From: Patescibacteria group bacterium
GTDB lineage: Bacteria > Patescibacteriota > Microgenomatia > UBA10105 > UBA927
DNA length: 64,000 nucleotides
Assembly: GCA_038062895.1 (NCBI GenBank)
Contig: JBBTWJ010000005.1
Span: 3,715-67,714 of the forward strand
Direction of reading: 5' to 3'
Shown in pieces: positions 2,152-60,709 of the stretch. Position numbers and translations under genes: made by a program. The notes beneath the pieces were generated by a model that saw only the letters and a list, made by a program, of their open reading frames with translations, ran no database searches and was not told where the DNA came from. How positions within the stretch are numbered: position 1 is the stretch's first letter; every line of letters begins with the position of its first letter.

Positions 2152-3246
2152 CTAAACCTTAAAATATGCAAATACTTCTGCCATAGCCTCAAGTCCCCGA
2201 GCGAGATTTCTCATGGTCTGTTCGGAGCTGTCCACAGTAGAACGTTTTTTGCGCAAATGAAGCTTGGATACGAGATACCGGAGCTTAAACAACTCAAACT
2301 TTTCCTTCCAATCGCCCAATTTCCTCACTTCTTCATACCCACGAACAAACCAGCTCATCCGGGGCTCGCCAAAAAACAAACTGTACGCCGCAAGCTCCAT
2401 GATGGGATCGCCGCCCACGCATTCATCCCAATCCATCATCGCAGTAATTTCTTTGCCGTCTGTAAGGATGTTCCAATCAGCAATGTCGTTGTGAATGACG
2501 ACAGGATTATTGATCGTAAGAAGATCTTCGTGTTTCGCAAACACCGCCTCGATAATTTTTCTTTGCCTCGGGGTAATCGTCTCTGAATCCTGAAGGTACC
2601 CGAGATCTTCTTCTAGTCCTGCTCTCACATGTTCTGATAAATTGTTGTACTGGCCCACTAATCGTCCTTCATTTTTTGCAATGTCGTTTCGGAAAAAACC
2701 AAATCCCTTGGGCGTCATCGTGTGAATGCGTGCGGCATAGCGGCCGGTTTGGATCACTAACTGTTCTTCTAAATCCGAAGATAATGGCCAAAAATCCTGC
2801 ATGGGTTTCCCCGACTCGCGCGTCATGATCATATAGTCAAACGGCACACGTTTGCGCGTATCATCAACCACGAGGCATGTATACGTCGGGACACCCGCGG
2901 CGCGGGCAAGATTGGTCGCCACAGACTCCACCCAAAAGTACCCGTTTTTCACTTCCGGCGGATGCATCCGAATGACGATCTCCCTGCCGCTTTTTAGGAT
3001 AACCGGAACGACCGTATTGATGAGTCCTCGTGCGATGAATGGCTCGACGCGAGCAACCTCTGTATCAACGCCAGAAAAACCCGCACGAATCATGCCAAAT
3101 ACGACTGCTCTTCGCAGTAAACGCTCGTCAAACCGTTCATGACGGGTGAGGAAGATCTCTTTATCCTGCTGAGCGGAAATGCGCCTGTTCACCTGCCAGT
3201 AGAACATGTTGGACCGGTCAGAAAGATCGAGTATTTGAGAAGTCAT
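2152..3246 (-). CDS. Phosphotransferase-family kinase (APH/CotS/choline-kinase-like fold)
   Basis: 364 aa with Brenner motif HNDIADWNIL and a DWDE metal-binding motif, typical of the aminoglycoside phosphotransferase / protein-kinase-like superfamily. Confidence 0.7.
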   Translation of the reverse strand: MTSQILDLSDRSNMFYWQVNRRISAQQDKEIFLTRHERFDERLLRRAVVFGMIRAGFSGVDTEVARVEPFIARGLINTVVPVILKSGREIVIRMHPPEVKNGYFWVESVATNLARAAGVPTYTCLVVDDTRKRVPFDYMIMTRESGKPMQDFWPLSSDLEEQLVIQTGRYAARIHTMTPKGFGFFRNDIAKNEGRLVGQYNNLSEHVRAGLEEDLGYLQDSETITPRQRKIIEAVFAKHEDLLTINNPVVIHNDIADWNILTDGKEITAMMDWDECVGGDPIMELAAYSLFFGEPRMSWFVRGYEEVRKLGDWKEKFELFKLRYLVSKLHLRKKRSTVDSSEQTMRNLARGLEAMAEVFAYFKV

Positions 3247-3247
3247 A

Positions 3248-4006
3248 TCATTGTTTTGGGAATATTCGCCGCCATGTATGTCGAATATTCATGCGAAGCC
3301 GCATAAAAGGAGTGATATGACCGCCTTCCAAGGGAATTCGAATCTCGAGATAAAATCGCTGAAGATGGTGGAGGAGGCACAGAAATAGTTCATCTTTCCC
3401 TTTTGTTTTTCCGCGACAAATGTGATGATGTGCGCCTATGGCAACCGTCTGAATCGGCACGGTAAGTGTAATGTTTGTCATGTCATCCCGGTCCAGAGCG
3501 CCATCTTCTTTATCCTTCGCTTCCACCTGCATCGCAGCATAACGCGCTTCCAGCTTATCCTCGCTGTACTGGGTGTATCGCATAGCGATCAACTTGTCCC
3601 AGAGATCCAAATACTGCTTCTCGATCCCGTACCCGCGGAGTGTCTCCCGATGAGCATTGGGAATTTCTTCCCGAACCAGAGAAAAAAACTCTCCCATTTC
3701 TTCAACGGTCCGAAGATCTTTTGCATCAAGCGTGAGCATGATAAGCGTGATAGTCGCAACTACAAGTTCATTAAATACCCTATCTTGTTCGACTTTTTCC
3801 AGGCTTTCAAACCCCAACAGTTTTCTGTATGTATTGTCTTGATAGATCCGAAATGCAAAGCTGCTTGCGGCCTGATCAAAAGAAGCTGCGAGAATCTTTG
3901 CCGTTTTTGCAGGTGGCAACGGCCGGTTGGACCCTCGAATTTTCATTCTTTTCATTTCTTCATCTAAATCCATAGGTGTTATCTTTTTTTTCGGTTTTCC
4001 CGCCAT
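3248..4006 (-). CDS. Hypothetical protein
   Basis: 252-aa ORF. Its stop abuts the start of the kinase-like gene and there is a palindromic element in its upstream region. No recognisable domain. Confidence 0.5.
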   Translation of the reverse strand: MAGKPKKKITPMDLDEEMKRMKIRGSNRPLPPAKTAKILAASFDQAASSFAFRIYQDNTYRKLLGFESLEKVEQDRVFNELVVATITLIMLTLDAKDLRTVEEMGEFFSLVREEIPNAHRETLRGYGIEKQYLDLWDKLIAMRYTQYSEDKLEARYAAMQVEAKDKEDGALDRDDMTNITLTVPIQTVAIGAHHHICRGKTKGKDELFLCLLHHLQRFYLEIRIPLEGGHITPFMRLRMNIRHTWRRIFPKQ

Positions 4007-4073
4007 ATGTTGTGAACAGTAATATCAAATATTAGCATATAACTACTTCCCCAACCTCATTTTTTCAGTAAAT

Positions 4074-4120
4074 ACTTGTACGTTATACGTTGCGACCGCA
4101 ACTTGCAACATACATGTCTC
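4074..4120. repeat. 38-bp near-perfect palindrome, copy 1 (upstream of hypothetical gene 3248..4006)
   Basis: cgttatacgttgcgaccgcaacttgcaacatacatg, with inverted arms TGTATGTTGCAAGT/ACTTGCAACATACA around a GCGACCGC core. Confidence 0.8.
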
Positions 4121-4136
4121 GATAAAAAAATCTTCT

Positions 4137-4952
4137 CTAGCTGGTTGCTTTTCGTAAATTCCGTACCGCTCGCCGAGCATTCATCGCCGGCCAATCGGCT
4201 GACAATAATTCTTTAGGCAAACACGGGTCAGACAAAAGCGCTTCGATATATCGTTGTCGAACCTTCCTCTCCCTCTGTGTCACATTCGCCTCTTTTGCCT
4301 CTGTATGTTGTAAGTGGCGACCGCTACTTGCAACATACATGTCTGTCAGTTGCGTCGCTTCTTCAATAATTTCTCGGTACGCTTCCTCAAGAGCATCGAG
4401 GTTCCAAATTTTTCTAACCAACAGCGCCTGATCCCCTGCAAGAATAGCTGATACTTCAAGCACAAACGCTGTGTCTCCCAAATCCTGGCTTTCTAAATAT
4501 TCCCGTAGGTCAATACTCACATCGTGAGGCGTAATCCAAACCGACTCTTGAAGCATCCCCAACCCGAGTTGCCGTAACTTATCCCGCAAGAGTTCTCTTG
4601 TACTTTTATCAATTTCGACAATATCAAAAATCACCAAGCGCCACCGTTTGTCCCACGGCATATTGGCAAGACGCAATAAGGGAAAAACTCTGGTCATCCT
4701 CTCTTTTCCTTCAGACGTCAAACGAAGATATATCTCGTCTCCCTTGATCACTTTTTCGATATCACCCGTCTTAAGTTGTCGTCCGACCACGCGGGAAAAG
4801 TTATGGCGACGATATCGTGTCGGTACCCACCCATAGAGGCTATGACAGCCGCGAGCCATCACCCCAAATGGATCCTTCACTTCCTCAAATACATCCAGAG
4901 CGCCAGCAATCCCTAACAACAGCACGTCGCCTGGTCTCAAAAGTTTTTTCAT
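4137..4952 (-). CDS. PaaX-family transcriptional regulator
   Basis: 271 aa. The pattern ...WDKRWRLVIFDI...LRQLGLGMLQESVWITP and the C-terminal ELLSADWP..NARR match the PaaX middle and C-terminal regions. Confidence 0.7.
   Translation of the reverse strand: MKKLLRPGDVLLLGIAGALDVFEEVKDPFGVMARGCHSLYGWVPTRYRRHNFSRVVGRQLKTGDIEKVIKGDEIYLRLTSEGKERMTRVFPLLRLANMPWDKRWRLVIFDIVEIDKSTRELLRDKLRQLGLGMLQESVWITPHDVSIDLREYLESQDLGDTAFVLEVSAILAGDQALLVRKIWNLDALEEAYREIIEEATQLTDMYVASSGRHLQHTEAKEANVTQRERKVRQRYIEALLSDPCLPKELLSADWPAMNARRAVRNLRKATS
4300..4348. repeat. 38-bp palindrome, copy 2 (inside PaaX-like CDS, translated as DMYVASSGRHLQHT)
   Basis: tgtatgttgtaagtggcgaccgctacttgcaacataca. Confidence 0.8.
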
Positions 4953-4979
4953 ACAGTCAAAAAAGTCACTCCCCGCTCG

Positions 4980-5030
4980 CTTATATGTATGTTATAAGTT
5001 GCGACCGCGTCTTGCAACATACAGGTTTTT
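4980..5030. repeat. 38-bp palindrome, copy 3 (promoter region of PaaX-like gene)
   Basis: tatgtatgttataagttgcgaccgcgtcttgcaacatacag. Confidence 0.8.
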
Positions 5031-5120
5031 CAATGAAAACAAAGGGAGTTTCACAAATCAGGGAGAAAGATTGACTGTGTTTCAGTTATTCAAGTCGTAA
5101 ATAACTCTATCTAATAACTC

Positions 5121-6938
5121 CTACTTTCGCTCCGCGCGGGTGCGGTCAAGCTTCGTGAGGTATTTTTTCCGAAGCCTCAAGTTAAGTGGGGTGATTTCCA
5201 GAAGTTCATCCTCTTCCAAAAAATCCAAACACTGTTCCAAGGAGAGCACGACGGGTGGATCCAGCTGTATGGCGATATCGGCGTTCGCTGAATGGATGTT
5301 GGTGAGTTTTTTAAACTTACACACATTAATATCAATATCTTCCTGACGGTTATTGAGCCCTATGATCATACCCTCATACACCGGCACTCCGGGACCGATG
5401 AGCGCTTTCCCCCGGTCCTGCACCGTCGTGAGCGCGTACCCAGATGATTTGCCGGTTTCAAACGCAACGAGCACCCCGTTTCGAAGCTTGGGCACCCGAG
5501 GCATCTCGGGAAAATAGCCAATGATCCGTGTCGAAAAAATTCCGTTTCCCCGCGTTTTGGTCAGGATATCGCCGCGAAACCCTAAGAGATTTCTACTTGA
5601 CACTTTATACACCATCCGGGTCGTCCCCCGATCATCCGTATGGGTATCCAAAAGCTCGGCCTTGCGTCTTCCTAAATCTTCGGTCACCACGCCGACGAAG
5701 GATGAATCAATATCAATCGTTATTTCTTCAAATGGCTCGGATACGACTCCGTCAATCGTTTTGAGAATGACTTCCGGCTTACCGACTTGCATTTCATACC
5801 CTTCACGCCGGAGCGTTTCTAAAAGTATTGCCAAATGGAGTTCACCGCGGCCAGCTACAACGAAACTACTTCCACCACCATTTTCTTCGATGATGAGTCC
5901 GATATTCGTCTGTTTTTCGCGCATGAGCCTCTCTCCAATTTGACGCGCGGTACAAAATTTCCCCTCCCGACCGGCAAACGGGGAGGTGTTGGCGGAAAGC
6001 GTGATCTTGAGTGTCGGGGGCTCCAAATGAATAGCCGGATAGCCGGTCGGATCAGAGGGATCGGCGATCGTGTTGCCAATTGCTGCCTCCGAAACGCCGG
6101 TCATGGCAATAATGTCGCCGGAATCTCCACTCGTTACAGGAGCTCTGGCCAGTCCCACACTCGTAAATACCTCATCGATACGAAAAGTTCCAAGTTTTTC
6201 ATTCTCGTTGAGAAGTACGATCGACTGACCGGGTCTCACAGTACCTTGACTCACTTTTCCGATAGCAAATGTTCCTTTGTGCGCATCAAAATCCAACGTC
6301 GATACCAACATTTTAAACGGCATATCCGTGTGGACTTCCGGCACCGGAATGTTTTTTACAATTGCGTCAAACAACGGCTCGAGTGATCCGGGGGCCTCCA
6401 TATCCGCGGGGTACGTGGCCCACGCCTTCCCTTGCCGCCCAACGGCATACACGACCGGAAACGCCAAATGATCTTCATGGTGCGCTAAATGAAGAAACAG
6501 ACTTTCTATTTCACGAAGAACTGCATCCGGACGAGCGTCCTTGCGGTCAATCTTATTAATAACGACGATAACTTTTAAATTGAGTTCCATCGCTTTTTGC
6601 AGCACAAATTGTGTCTGCGGCAAAGGGCCTTCGGCTGCGTCAACGACCAGAAGCGCTCCGTCGGCCATATTGATGACACGCTCGACTTCGCCCCCGAAAT
6701 CCGCGTGTCCCGGAGTGTCAATGATATTGATCTTCGTCCCGTGGTACATAACTGCGGTGTTTTTGGCGAGTATCGTAATCCCTTTTTCCCGCTCCAGGTC
6801 ATTGGCGTCCAAAATAGTGGTTTGCCCCATCTCTGCCTGGTTGTCGCGGAATGTATGGGTCTGTTTGAGCATCCCGTCTACGAGGGTCGTTTTTCCATGA
6901 TCGACATGGGCGATGATAGCGACGTTTCTGATATCCAT
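5121..6938 (-). CDS. typA: Translational GTPase TypA/BipA
   Basis: MDIRNVAIIAHVDHGKTTLVDGML..DSNDLEREKGITI... The G-domain motifs and EF-G-like architecture across ~605 aa are clear. Start taken at the MDIRN Met. Confidence 0.95.
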   Translation of the reverse strand: MDIRNVAIIAHVDHGKTTLVDGMLKQTHTFRDNQAEMGQTTILDANDLEREKGITILAKNTAVMYHGTKINIIDTPGHADFGGEVERVINMADGALLVVDAAEGPLPQTQFVLQKAMELNLKVIVVINKIDRKDARPDAVLREIESLFLHLAHHEDHLAFPVVYAVGRQGKAWATYPADMEAPGSLEPLFDAIVKNIPVPEVHTDMPFKMLVSTLDFDAHKGTFAIGKVSQGTVRPGQSIVLLNENEKLGTFRIDEVFTSVGLARAPVTSGDSGDIIAMTGVSEAAIGNTIADPSDPTGYPAIHLEPPTLKITLSANTSPFAGREGKFCTARQIGERLMREKQTNIGLIIEENGGGSSFVVAGRGELHLAILLETLRREGYEMQVGKPEVILKTIDGVVSEPFEEITIDIDSSFVGVVTEDLGRRKAELLDTHTDDRGTTRMVYKVSSRNLLGFRGDILTKTRGNGIFSTRIIGYFPEMPRVPKLRNGVLVAFETGKSSGYALTTVQDRGKALIGPGVPVYEGMIIGLNNRQEDIDINVCKFKKLTNIHSANADIAIQLDPPVVLSLEQCLDFLEEDELLEITPLNLRLRKKYLTKLDRTRAERK

Positions 6939-39361: not shown

Positions 39362-39469
39362 TACAGGTGCAAAATTCGTACCCCGTAAGTATACCTCAAC
39401 TGCGTGATGAAATAGAAATTTTACCGTAATAGAATAGACAAAATACACCACGTGGTGTATTTTGTCTCA

Positions 39470-39883
39470 TCAGCGGATTTTTGTCAGGTCACTATCCAAA
39501 ACTACTGGCTGAAGAGCGTGCATTTCCGTCAAGTAATCCATTTGAGGAATTGGGTTTAGGAGAAATATCTTTTTGCCCAACCAAAATGCGATCCCCATTT
39601 CTAAAAAGGTGTTCCCGCCAATATATCCGGCAATCCCCTTCTTATCTAAATTGAGAACCAATATCGCATCAGACTCATGAATAAAGTTAAAGTGATCCCG
39701 GATGACATCATACTCAACTTTGATGAGTACTTTTTCCTCATCAGTGTCTTTGTATGACTCATTTTTGGTGATGTCGTAAACCCCCTTAGGAACAAAAACC
39801 ACGTGACCAAACTCCTCGAGCTTCTTTTTATACGCGAGCATCTCTTCGTGAAACTGCATGCTACCGCAAATTGTGATCGTCAT
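39470..39883 (-). CDS. Nucleoside 2-deoxyribosyltransferase-like protein (putative)
   Basis: C-terminal GGNTFLEMGIAFWLGKK resembles the NDT family catalytic Glu region. Confidence 0.5.
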   Translation of the reverse strand: MTITICGSMQFHEEMLAYKKKLEEFGHVVFVPKGVYDITKNESYKDTDEEKVLIKVEYDVIRDHFNFIHESDAILVLNLDKKGIAGYIGGNTFLEMGIAFWLGKKIFLLNPIPQMDYLTEMHALQPVVLDSDLTKIR

Positions 39884-42759: not shown

Positions 42760-42771
42760 TTTTAATTTTCT

Positions 42772-42806
42772 CAAGGCCACCCCTTGCAAACGCCAAGGGG
42801 TGGCCT
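42772..42806. repeat. Perfect 14-bp-stem hairpin (copy 1), a likely bidirectional terminator or REP-like element
   Basis: aaggccaccccttgcaaacgccaaggggtggcctt, identical to 60675..60709. Confidence 0.75.
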
Positions 42807-42817
42807 TTAACACGATA

Positions 42818-43504: not shown

Positions 43505-43555
43505 TTTCTTAAGGTACTTCCTTGCTTCTGCAAGGAAGTACCTTGTAAAACCCTG

Positions 43556-59697: not shown

Positions 59698-60648
59698 TCA
59701 TGCTTGGCGGTTGAGCGCAAAACTTGCAAAGTCAGTAAGAAGCGCTCCCATGCCGACAGACGCATGAATCGCTTGGGTCGCCTGAGCCGTCTGCTTTCCA
59801 AGCTTCTTGGCCTGTGTGCGGAAAGCGTCCTCACCAACTTCACCATCAAGGAAATCATCGCGCAGTTGATATGCCTCTCCCACCGCCAGGCCGTACGGTA
59901 CAAACGATTCGAGCGTTTTCTCATCCGACCCGGCGATGCTCGCTCCGATCTGAAGAGGCCGGACGACGCTGTACCAAGCAGTTTTATAACGGTTAATCGT
60001 TGCCCTGTCGGCGCTGGGCAATCCAGCGGAGGCCAACACATCCAGGCTCTGACCCAAAATCACCTCTTGTTTCATTTTCTGATAATTTACCCACACGCTC
60101 GACCAATTCCGGGAATCCTTTGGATTCCCGGAATTAACGGCCCGGTTCATCAGTTCATCCGCCCACGCCAATGCGAGGTCGCCGGCGAGGATAGCCATGC
60201 TCTCGCCGAAACGCGAACTCCCCATCCGATTCCGGGAATCCAAAGGATTCCCGGAATCTAGCGCAACCTGCTTAAACTTTTCATGAACAGTGGGACTGCC
60301 GCGGCGCATCGCATCTTCGTCAATAATATCGTCATGGATGAGAGCAAACGACTGAAATAGTTCAATTCCCATCATGGCAGAGAGCACGTTGTCATCCCCG
60401 ACCCGATCGGGGATCCAGGTATTGCGCTGGATTCCCGCGTGCGCGGGAATGACAGACTGGTGCCCCAGCCATACCAGAAACGCCCGGGTCCGCTTGCCGC
60501 CGCGGGAGGTGAGATCGGCTATTTGGTCAACGAGTTGTATGGTCTGCGGATGGATGTTTTTCGCTTCACTGTGTTTGGTCGTAAAAAAGTGTTGAAGTTC
60601 ATGATCGACGTTCTTCTTGACATCATGAAGGGCTGTAGTGAGATCCAT
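59698..60648 (-). CDS. Polyprenyl diphosphate synthase (FPP/GGPP synthase family) carrying three translated palindromic insertions
   Basis: FARM motif LIHDDIIDEDAMRRG and SARM motif GEAYQLRDDFLD. Start at the Met MDLTTALHD; the longer ORF extension is encoded by an intergenic repeat copy. Confidence 0.9.
   Translation of the reverse strand: MDLTTALHDVKKNVDHELQHFFTTKHSEAKNIHPQTIQLVDQIADLTSRGGKRTRAFLVWLGHQSVIPAHAGIQRNTWIPDRVGDDNVLSAMMGIELFQSFALIHDDIIDEDAMRRGSPTVHEKFKQVALDSGNPLDSRNRMGSSRFGESMAILAGDLALAWADELMNRAVNSGNPKDSRNWSSVWVNYQKMKQEVILGQSLDVLASAGLPSADRATINRYKTAWYSVVRPLQIGASIAGSDEKTLESFVPYGLAVGEAYQLRDDFLDGEVGEDAFRTQAKKLGKQTAQATQAIHASVGMGALLTDFASFALNRQA
60105..60142. repeat. Palindromic element family B (14-bp arms) inside polyprenyl synthase CDS, translated NSGNPKDSRNW
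   Basis: aattccgggaatcc-ttt-ggattcccggaatt. Confidence 0.85.
60229..60262. repeat. Palindromic element family B, second copy, inside polyprenyl synthase CDS, translated DSGNPLDSRNR
   Basis: gattccgggaatcc-aaa-ggattcccggaatc. Confidence 0.85.
60427..60454. repeat. Palindromic element family A inside polyprenyl synthase CDS, translated SVIPAHAGIQ
   Basis: ctggattcccgcgtgcgcgggaatgaca. Confidence 0.85.
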
Positions 60649-60674
60649 GGGAGAAGTATACCAAATTTCATAAG

Positions 60675-60709
60675 GCCACCCCTTGCAAACGCCAAGGGGT
60701 GGCCTTGAA
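60675..60709. repeat. Perfect hairpin (copy 2), identical to 42772..42806
   Basis: aaggccaccccttgcaaacgccaaggggtggcctt. Confidence 0.75.

Follow-up and report, generated by a model that had tools for sequence, protein, structure and literature searches.

Palindromes at the PaaX-like locus

The DNA considered here is a stretch of 64,000 nucleotides from contig JBBTWJ010000005.1 of a Patescibacteria group bacterium of Gottesmanbacteria type (referred to as the window), which holds a PaaX-family regulator gene that is bracketed, and also entered, by three copies of a 38-bp palindrome (Table 1). The upstream copy (UP) ends 34 nt 5' of the ATG of the regulator gene, the internal copy (IN) corresponds to codons 205–217 of its coding sequence (CDS), and the downstream copy (DOWN) lies 23 nt past its stop codon and 70 nt before the ATG of the following gene, which encodes a hypothetical protein. 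The three copies have identical orientation, with the centre GCGACCGC of the plus strand reading GCGGTCGC in the sense of the gene, and the distal hexamers of the palindrome are TGTATG-N26-CATACA, with 26 bp between them. Symmetry is highest in the IN copy and lowest in the DOWN copy, whose left arm on the plus strand holds four mismatches with respect to the consensus.

These copies had been reported in the original prediction, and their presence around and within the gene is confirmed here, with slightly tighter bounds. The 14-nt half-site TGTATGTTGCAAGT finds five matches in the 64 kb when up to two mismatches are allowed, all of them inside the three copies, compared to an expectation of 0.29; none of 100 shuffled sequences reaches five, and no further credible copy appears in the 64 kb at three mismatches. 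A chance origin of the copies in the window is excluded.

The PaaX-like identity assigned earlier to the gene product is also sustained. Pfam recognizes the Cas2-like central domain PaaX_M (PF20803) with 71.3 bits (cut-off 24), and PaaX_C (PF08223) with 40.3 bits (cut-off 22). The structure of E. coli PaaX (8A39) is homologous to the regulator with an E of 9e-9 in an alignment that starts at residue 71, and 3KFW is homologous as well. The protein is nevertheless not PaaX proper, the repressor of the phenylacetate catabolon that is linked to paa catabolic genes and responds to phenylacetyl-CoA, nor a PaaX orthologue, because its score against the PaaX equivalog model TIGR02277 (78.9 bits, alignment from residue 56) falls far below the cut-off of 264.55. 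No paa genes are found near the regulator, whose neighbours encode BipA, the hypothetical protein, an APH-like kinase, LemA, TPM, and ZIP proteins. The PADLOC library of defence systems yields only weak Cas2 matches, to residues 104–139. Homologues of the regulator are found in Gottesmanbacteria and other Patescibacteria, and clustering of the family at 50% identity leaves 3,508 representatives at E ≤ 1e-3.

Table 1. Coordinates of the palindromes and genes discussed in the text; positions refer to the window unless a locus from another genome (L number) is named.
Feature	Position	Strand	Description
PaaX-family regulator gene, 271 aa	4137..4952	(-)	Pfam PF20803 and PF08223 above cut-offs
UP palindrome	4986..5023	(-)	plus strand TGTATGTTATAAGT-TGCGACCGCG-TCTTGCAACATACA; gene sense TGTATGTTGCAAGA-CGCGGTCGCA-ACTTATAACATACA
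IN palindrome	4302..4339	(-)	plus strand TGTATGTTGTAAGT-GGCGACCGCT-ACTTGCAACATACA; gene sense TGTATGTTGCAAGT-AGCGGTCGCC-ACTTACAACATACA
DOWN palindrome	4077..4114	(-)	plus strand TGTACGTTATACGT-TGCGACCGCA-ACTTGCAACATACA; gene sense TGTATGTTGCAAGT-TGCGGTCGCA-ACGTATAACGTACA
Hypothetical gene, 252 aa, no family match	3248..4006	(-)	first gene after DOWN; candidate regulated target
APH-family phosphotransferase gene	2152..3246	(-)	start abuts stop of hypothetical gene
PaaX-like locus with UP and IN copies, mreB/mreC context, L093	2445-3133		
PaaX-like locus with UP and IN copies, mreB/mreC context, L097	2444-3133		
PaaX-like locus with UP and IN copies, mreB/mreC context, L099	2456-3130		
Solitary palindrome, L090	5132-5169		28 nt upstream of co-directional phosphoglucomutase/phosphomannomutase-like gene; same genome as L004
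Solitary palindrome, L091	2900-2937		75 nt upstream of co-directional M16-peptidase-like gene
Solitary palindrome, L092 (Gottesmanbacteria JACQHE010000028.1)	3269-3306		upstream of co-directional homologue of the hypothetical gene
Solitary palindrome, L086	1149-1186		between convergent nuclease-like gene and rpsI; same genome as L004

Constraint on the internal copy

In the open reading frame (ORF) of the regulator, the IN copy is read as (D)MYVASSGRHLQHT, residues 204–217, of which MYVASSGRHLQHT represents residues 205–217. In an alignment of 27 sequences this peptide is gap-free and conserved (MYV..GR..QHT), Arg212 is invariant, and a highly variable insertion zone follows directly after the segment. 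The codon position of the segment is unchanged in at least 12 loci, and in orthologues down to ~42% identity, and the invariant [D/G]-R dipeptide is encoded as GAT-CGN or GGY-CGN, which is the core of the palindrome. Among pairs of identical residues in eight orthologues, codon identity reaches 84% inside the IN segment versus 42% in the rest of the gene, and all the top-scoring sliding windows of codon identity fall in this segment; due to this constraint on synonymous positions, the IN copy is to be regarded as a selected DNA element. The copy in the window holds CAA where the intergenic copies hold TAA, which at that point would be an in-frame stop codon. According to an AlphaFold2 model built from the 27-sequence alignment, which is of poor quality (mean predicted local distance difference test score, pLDDT, of 58), residues 205–217 may comprise a helix terminus and a loop. 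The distance from the UP to the IN copy is 651–684 bp in most loci, and 637 bp in L099.

The presence of a copy within the gene had been taken as favouring an ORF-invading palindromic element, that is, a miniature inverted-repeat transposable element (MITE) or an element like the Rickettsia palindromic elements, inserted at two intergenic sites and in the ORF. As in those elements, a palindrome is translated here within a protein, and further, unrelated families of palindromes are present in the window. Unlike them, however, the IN segment is not an insertion relative to the orthologues, where it is present at the same codons and conserved, and the palindrome is neither dispersed nor found in unrelated genes. 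The sequence of the copies is lineage-specific and matches only the local flanking copies, and the three copies in the 64 kb are all at one gene. An exact degenerate pattern comprising all the copies known at that point, which misses diverged ones, was scanned over 185,579 species genomes, a set in which the source organism's own genome was not encountered; it returned eight stretches, seven of them in Gottesmanbacteria-type metagenome-assembled genomes, with one to four copies per genome, a scarcity that, combined with conservation of the internal copy in orthologues, the original prediction had itself named as refuting a mobile element. Together with the synonymous constraint, this makes an invading element extremely improbable.

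Site architecture and co-variation across the family

Homologue loci at 27–60% identity hold palindromes of equal size in equivalent positions, with wholly different arms. The centre is always CG(A/G)(T/C)CG across the family, while the arms are lineage-specific, as exemplified by CTTTAC…ACTACGATCGTAGT…GTAAAG, ATGTAACT…ACGGCCGT…AGTTAAAT, and CCGGACAAC…TTCGATCGAG…GTTGTCCGG. When at least 13 of 19 symmetric pairs around a CG[AG][TC]CG centre are demanded, 41 of the 81 homologue loci hold a palindrome within −170 to +25 of the start of the gene, against a background of three palindromes in 257 kb of distal flanks. These three distal CG-core palindromes, located more than 400 bp from the gene, are unrelated to the copies of their own locus.

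Within one locus, the copies share on average 31.9 of 38 bases, compared to 15.9 of 38 between loci. The IN copy follows its neighbours in this respect: in most loci it resembles its own flanking copies at least about as well as it resembles the orthologous IN copies (37 versus 34 bases in L001, 35 versus 29 in L005, and 31–32 versus 22 in L007), with L096 and L088 as exceptions. The IN copy is an integral and ancient member of the set of sites, and not an exception to it. The putative recognition-helix region of the protein (RYRRHNFSR in the clade of the window) differs between lineages with different arms, and the lineage-specificity of these arms would imply a co-evolution of the specificity of the protein with all its sites. 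In distant loci, UP and DOWN copies vary independently at the two central bases, which agrees with a symmetric dimer that reads two half-sites. The inner arms in genome GCA_030679255.1 are no longer symmetric, and the distal hexamers and the core persist, which is the pattern of a protein-contact motif.

Among the orthologous loci, L001, L089, L094, and L096 hold the UP, IN, and DOWN copies, whereas UP and IN copies are present in L088, L005, L095, L093, L097, and L099, and in L004 the IN copy has decayed while UP and DOWN remain. Occupation of the UP position extends in this way over L001, L089, L088, L094, L096, L095, L005, and L004. The DOWN copy is absent in L095, L093, and L099, and none is found nearby in L097. 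The BipA-regulator order of the window is shared by L001, L004, and L096, and, judging from partial upstream ORFs, also by L089 and L094. In L001 (3960-4003) and L096 (1522-1566), the UP copy takes up nearly the whole gap between both genes. Only 3–4 nt separate its end from the ATG, too few for a ribosome-binding site, so that the mRNA may be leaderless and start at the ATG, or else bipA and the regulator gene may be co-transcribed.

In another clade, at 53–56% identity, three diverged genomes hold the PaaX-like gene, accompanied by UP and IN copies, between mreB and mreC-(mreD)-pbp2, an arrangement that suggests control of cell-shape genes. In L097, one of these loci, an extra copy (5610-5647) is located where a dprA-like gene begins, some 2.3 kb further downstream.

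A short branch of the family (L030, L048, L055, L058, L059, L066, L069, L076, L077, and others) consists of genes of about 510–570 bp that apparently lack the C-terminal part. They are bracketed by UP and DOWN copies located 560–775 bp apart, similar to the UP-to-IN distance of the long clade. A single CAA-to-TAA change in an IN copy would give both a stop codon and a −10-like hexamer.

Predicted operator function and comparison with known systems

With a probability of about two in three, the PaaX-family protein encoded between the three palindromes recognizes them as its cognate binding sites in DNA. Under this model, in which binding, repression, looping, and promoter overlap are inferred, a dimer of the regulator would contact the distal hexamers TGTATG and CATACA, 26 bp apart, in a geometry like that of the E. 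coli PaaX operator, and would also contact the family-wide core CG(A/G)|(T/C)CG. The UP site is expected to overlap or adjoin the regulator's own promoter, resulting in autoregulation. The IN site would serve as a second operator, some 650–685 bp downstream, in a part of the gene that encodes a tolerant helix-loop linker, and probably works together with the UP site through cooperative binding or looping, or else as a roadblock to elongation. The DOWN site, which in the clade of the window precedes the co-directional hypothetical-APH-LemA-TPM genes, would probably exert the same type of control on them. The peptide 205–217, including the invariant Arg codon in the CG core, would then be largely dictated by the operator.

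Among the closest known systems is that of PaaX from E. coli and Pseudomonas, acting at the Pa, Pz, Px, and pac promoters, whose Cas2-like central and PaaX_C domains are homologous to those of the regulator. PaaX autoregulates through its own promoter, and its site in E. coli is TGATTC-N27-GAATCA (review PMC9493321). Both operators share a long span with distal inverted hexamers, N27 apart in E. coli and N26 here (TGTATG-N26-CATACA), and the UP copy, 34 nt upstream of the ATG, agrees in position and span with a PaaX-type operator, in which such hexamers stand some 27 bp from each other at the promoter of the regulator itself; its binding is predicted. Contrary to the PaaX site, all 38 bp are palindromic here and the CG(A/G)(T/C)CG centre is conserved, and the sites bracket the regulator gene, with one inside its CDS, in a neighbourhood free of paa genes.

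Auxiliary operators within genes are represented by lac O2 in lacZ, gal OI in galE, and the site in the coding region of purR itself. In those cases, as in the present one, an operator near the promoter is accompanied by a second one hundreds of bp downstream in a CDS, acting by looping or as a roadblock, and purR shares with the regulator the location of the second site in the repressor's own gene. Unlike in the classical cases, the intragenic site described here keeps a fixed codon position across a large and deeply diverged family, changes in step with the flanking sites, and dictates a peptide that includes an invariant Arg codon. What is new is thus an operator at a fixed position of the regulator's own CDS throughout a family, its lock-step change with the flanking sites, and its imprint on the protein. 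A literature search returned no paper linking PaaX with Patescibacteria or the candidate phyla radiation (CPR), or with Cas2.

Putative promoter signals and evidence against operator function

In the clade of the window, the intergenic copies are directional. The UP copy of the window holds TTGCAA-N17-TAACAT, which resembles the −35 and −10 hexamers of a promoter. In 16 of the 20 intergenic copies of the clade, position 30 is occupied by T and its mirror position by G, so that a TAAYAT hexamer follows TTGCAA or TTGTAA at a distance of 17 bp. This T is found in none of the 10 IN copies. The core in the clade is always CGGTCG in gene sense.

Several observations weigh against the operator model. 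For all members of the clade, binding is a prediction. The N-terminal winged-helix domain of PaaX is not detected by Pfam at E ≤ 0.1, and the AlphaFold model is unreliable for residues 1–65 (pLDDT below 50), so that the N-terminus is a putative winged helix, with a helix-plus-wing motif (…FSRVVGRQLKTGDIEKV…YLRLTSEG) read from the alignment alone. With 8 of 12 matches, neither intergenic copy reaches the 9 that a sigma-70 scan of positions 3900–5200 requires for a promoter; hence, the placement of these copies in promoter regions by the original prediction stands in the positional sense only, at 34 and 70 nt upstream of start codons. Since the scan stays under its threshold, an oriented promoter embedded in the operator is inferred solely from the asymmetry at position 30. 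The gene that comes after the DOWN copy is convergent in many distant homologues, so that control of downstream genes from this site cannot be general; bracketing of the regulator is therefore the general rule, and downstream control is not. One solitary copy (L086) lies between convergent genes, and in L092 a single L001-type palindrome stands between BipA and a homologue of the hypothetical gene, with no adjacent PaaX-like gene. Finally, differences that preserve symmetry between copies of the same locus are in excess, as described below.

Some of these data would also fit sites that are bound by another factor, or that are plain promoters of a common architecture, with the PaaX-like protein not recognizing them: L092 keeps its palindrome without an adjacent regulator gene, the hexamers TTGCAA-N17-TAAYAT are present, with a defined orientation, in the intergenic copies of the clade, and recognition by the regulator is predicted. 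However, the association with the gene family is tight and family-wide, across 27–100% identity, while the arms change, and would be difficult to understand if the specific partner were any protein other than the neighbouring one. In addition, the IN copies are under strong constraint at the DNA level even though they have no −10-like T, and DOWN copies facing convergent genes cannot be promoters. Such an alternative is, consequently, quite improbable.

Possible recombination at the sites

Sites of about 34–38 bp with inverted arms and a 6–8 bp core are also typical of lox, FRT, and dif, and same-orientation copies flank the regulator gene as they would flank an excisable or insertable cassette. 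The arrangement of L092, which leaves one site, is exactly the product expected from recombination between UP and DOWN copies, although ordinary deletion between direct repeats is also compatible with it. A convergent tyrosine-recombinase gene closely follows the regulator in L095 (3374-4234, minus strand, Pfam-confirmed), as does an integrase-like ORF in L005 (4450-5340, minus strand), recognized by sequence only, and the contexts of the homologues are varied, including the position between mreB and mreC. On the other hand, no recombinase is consistently adjacent, these two loci being the only instances; synteny is stable within clades, with the BipA-regulator order kept in several genomes and mreB-regulator-mreC in three diverged ones; recombination at the internal site would give deletions that destroy the gene; and many loci lack the DOWN copy. 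The orientation of the core is inconsistent between UP and DOWN copies in distant loci, with cores that are oppositely oriented or, often, fully symmetric, and the deletion in L092 needs only ordinary recombination between 38-bp direct repeats. Recombination sites of the lox or dif type are thus very improbable. L095 and L005 belong to the lineage with CACGATCGTG / CGCGGCCGCG cores, and have no DOWN copy.

Possible folding of the nucleic acid and maintenance of symmetry

The palindromes might act in a folded state, as mRNA hairpins in the 5' untranslated region, the coding region, and the 3' untranslated region, or as hairpins of single-stranded DNA or cruciforms, being recognized by their shape and the apical CG core, for example in post-transcriptional autoregulation or processing. 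One indication is the above-mentioned excess: symmetry-preserving differences between copies of the same locus number 22, compared to 6.4 ± 2.3 expected (P < 0.001) in a test where the second copy was re-ascertained by similarity, with clear compensated cases in L021, L074, L033, and L059. The sequence of the arms differs freely among lineages with their symmetry preserved, the central domain of the regulator is Cas2-like, and in sense RNA the G9/T30 asymmetry that recurs in the intergenic copies would form a G-U pair.

Nevertheless, most differences between copies break the symmetry (123 single versus 22 compensated), and the excess falls to 21 versus 15.0 ± 2.5 under a null conditioned on symmetry. 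Positions without Watson–Crick pairing exhibit no clear bias for G-U in the sense strand (78 sense, 59 antisense, 142 other), the fold energies of the two intergenic window copies as single-stranded DNA are no better than those of shuffled sequences (z of −1.5 and −1.2), and neither Rfam matches at E ≤ 1 nor terminator-like sites in positions 3900–5200 were found. The loss of inner-arm symmetry with retention of hexamers and core in GCA_030679255.1 points in the same direction. Folded palindromes as the functional form are, therefore, unlikely.

An earlier, unconditioned version of the test for compensated substitutions (21 versus 4.4) was discarded, as it was biased by both copies having been chosen for symmetry and overstated the effect.

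The excess of symmetry-preserving changes is real but modest, and its cause is ambiguous. A symmetric dimer alone does not explain it, whereas a hairpin or cruciform would, as would template-switch events. Mutations of this latter type, known as quasipalindrome correction, can yield compensated changes without selection, and could account for those observed here. A further interpretation would be that symmetry is actively maintained because the palindromes fold, as hairpins of single-stranded DNA or cruciforms, or recombine, with the Cas2-like regulator and its bracketing sites forming a self-contained unit that homogenizes, deletes, or relocates itself; the empty site of L092 and the mreB/mreC position would then be its footprints. 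This interpretation is regarded as distinctly unlikely.

Downstream genes and solitary copies

Returning to the operator model, the hypothetical and APH genes probably form one operon, because the start of the latter abuts the stop codon of the former, and they are followed by the LemA and TPM genes. Homologues of the hypothetical gene follow a palindrome in L004, L094, and L092, and the APH gene comes directly after the DOWN palindrome in L001 and L096. Control of this operon from the DOWN site is probably, at most, a clade-specific addition. The proposal of operators in the original prediction is in this way supported in its core, by the positional enrichment, the locus-specific co-variation, and the span shared with the PaaX operator, but its extension to the downstream hypothetical gene and kinase is restricted to this clade at most.

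Solitary copies in L090, L091, and L092 are located 28–75 nt upstream of co-directional genes (Table 1), and the presence of such copies in related genomes suggests a small regulon.

Other palindromes in the window

Several unrelated palindromes are found elsewhere in the window. A GC-rich one, AAGGCCACCCCTTG-CAAACGC-CAAGGGGTGGCCTT, is present at 42771-42809 and 60670-60708, and is probably the other palindromic family mentioned in the original prediction. ATTCCGGGAATCC-N3-GGATTCCCGGAAT occurs twice, 123 bp apart (60103-60137 and 60226-60260), and AAGGTACTTCCTTGC-TTCT-GCAAGGAAGTACCTT once (43510-43545); at the threshold used for these three stretches, shuffled sequence gives no palindrome. A perfect 32-bp palindrome, AGACAAAATACACCAC|GTGGTGTATTTTGTCT, is located at 39436-39467, directly after the stop codon of ORF 39470..39883(-), with no T-run.

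Significance

Almost nothing is known about transcriptional control in CPR bacteria (Patescibacteria), and a large family of regulators gains here a predicted binding site. The family offers dozens of natural protein–site pairs with different specificities, which represent a data set for deciphering a recognition code and for predicting regulons. The IN copy also exemplifies an unusually clean mutual constraint of regulatory DNA and protein, in which thirteen codons, including that of an invariant arginine, would be set by an operator, and it illustrates that not every palindrome found in an ORF has invaded it.

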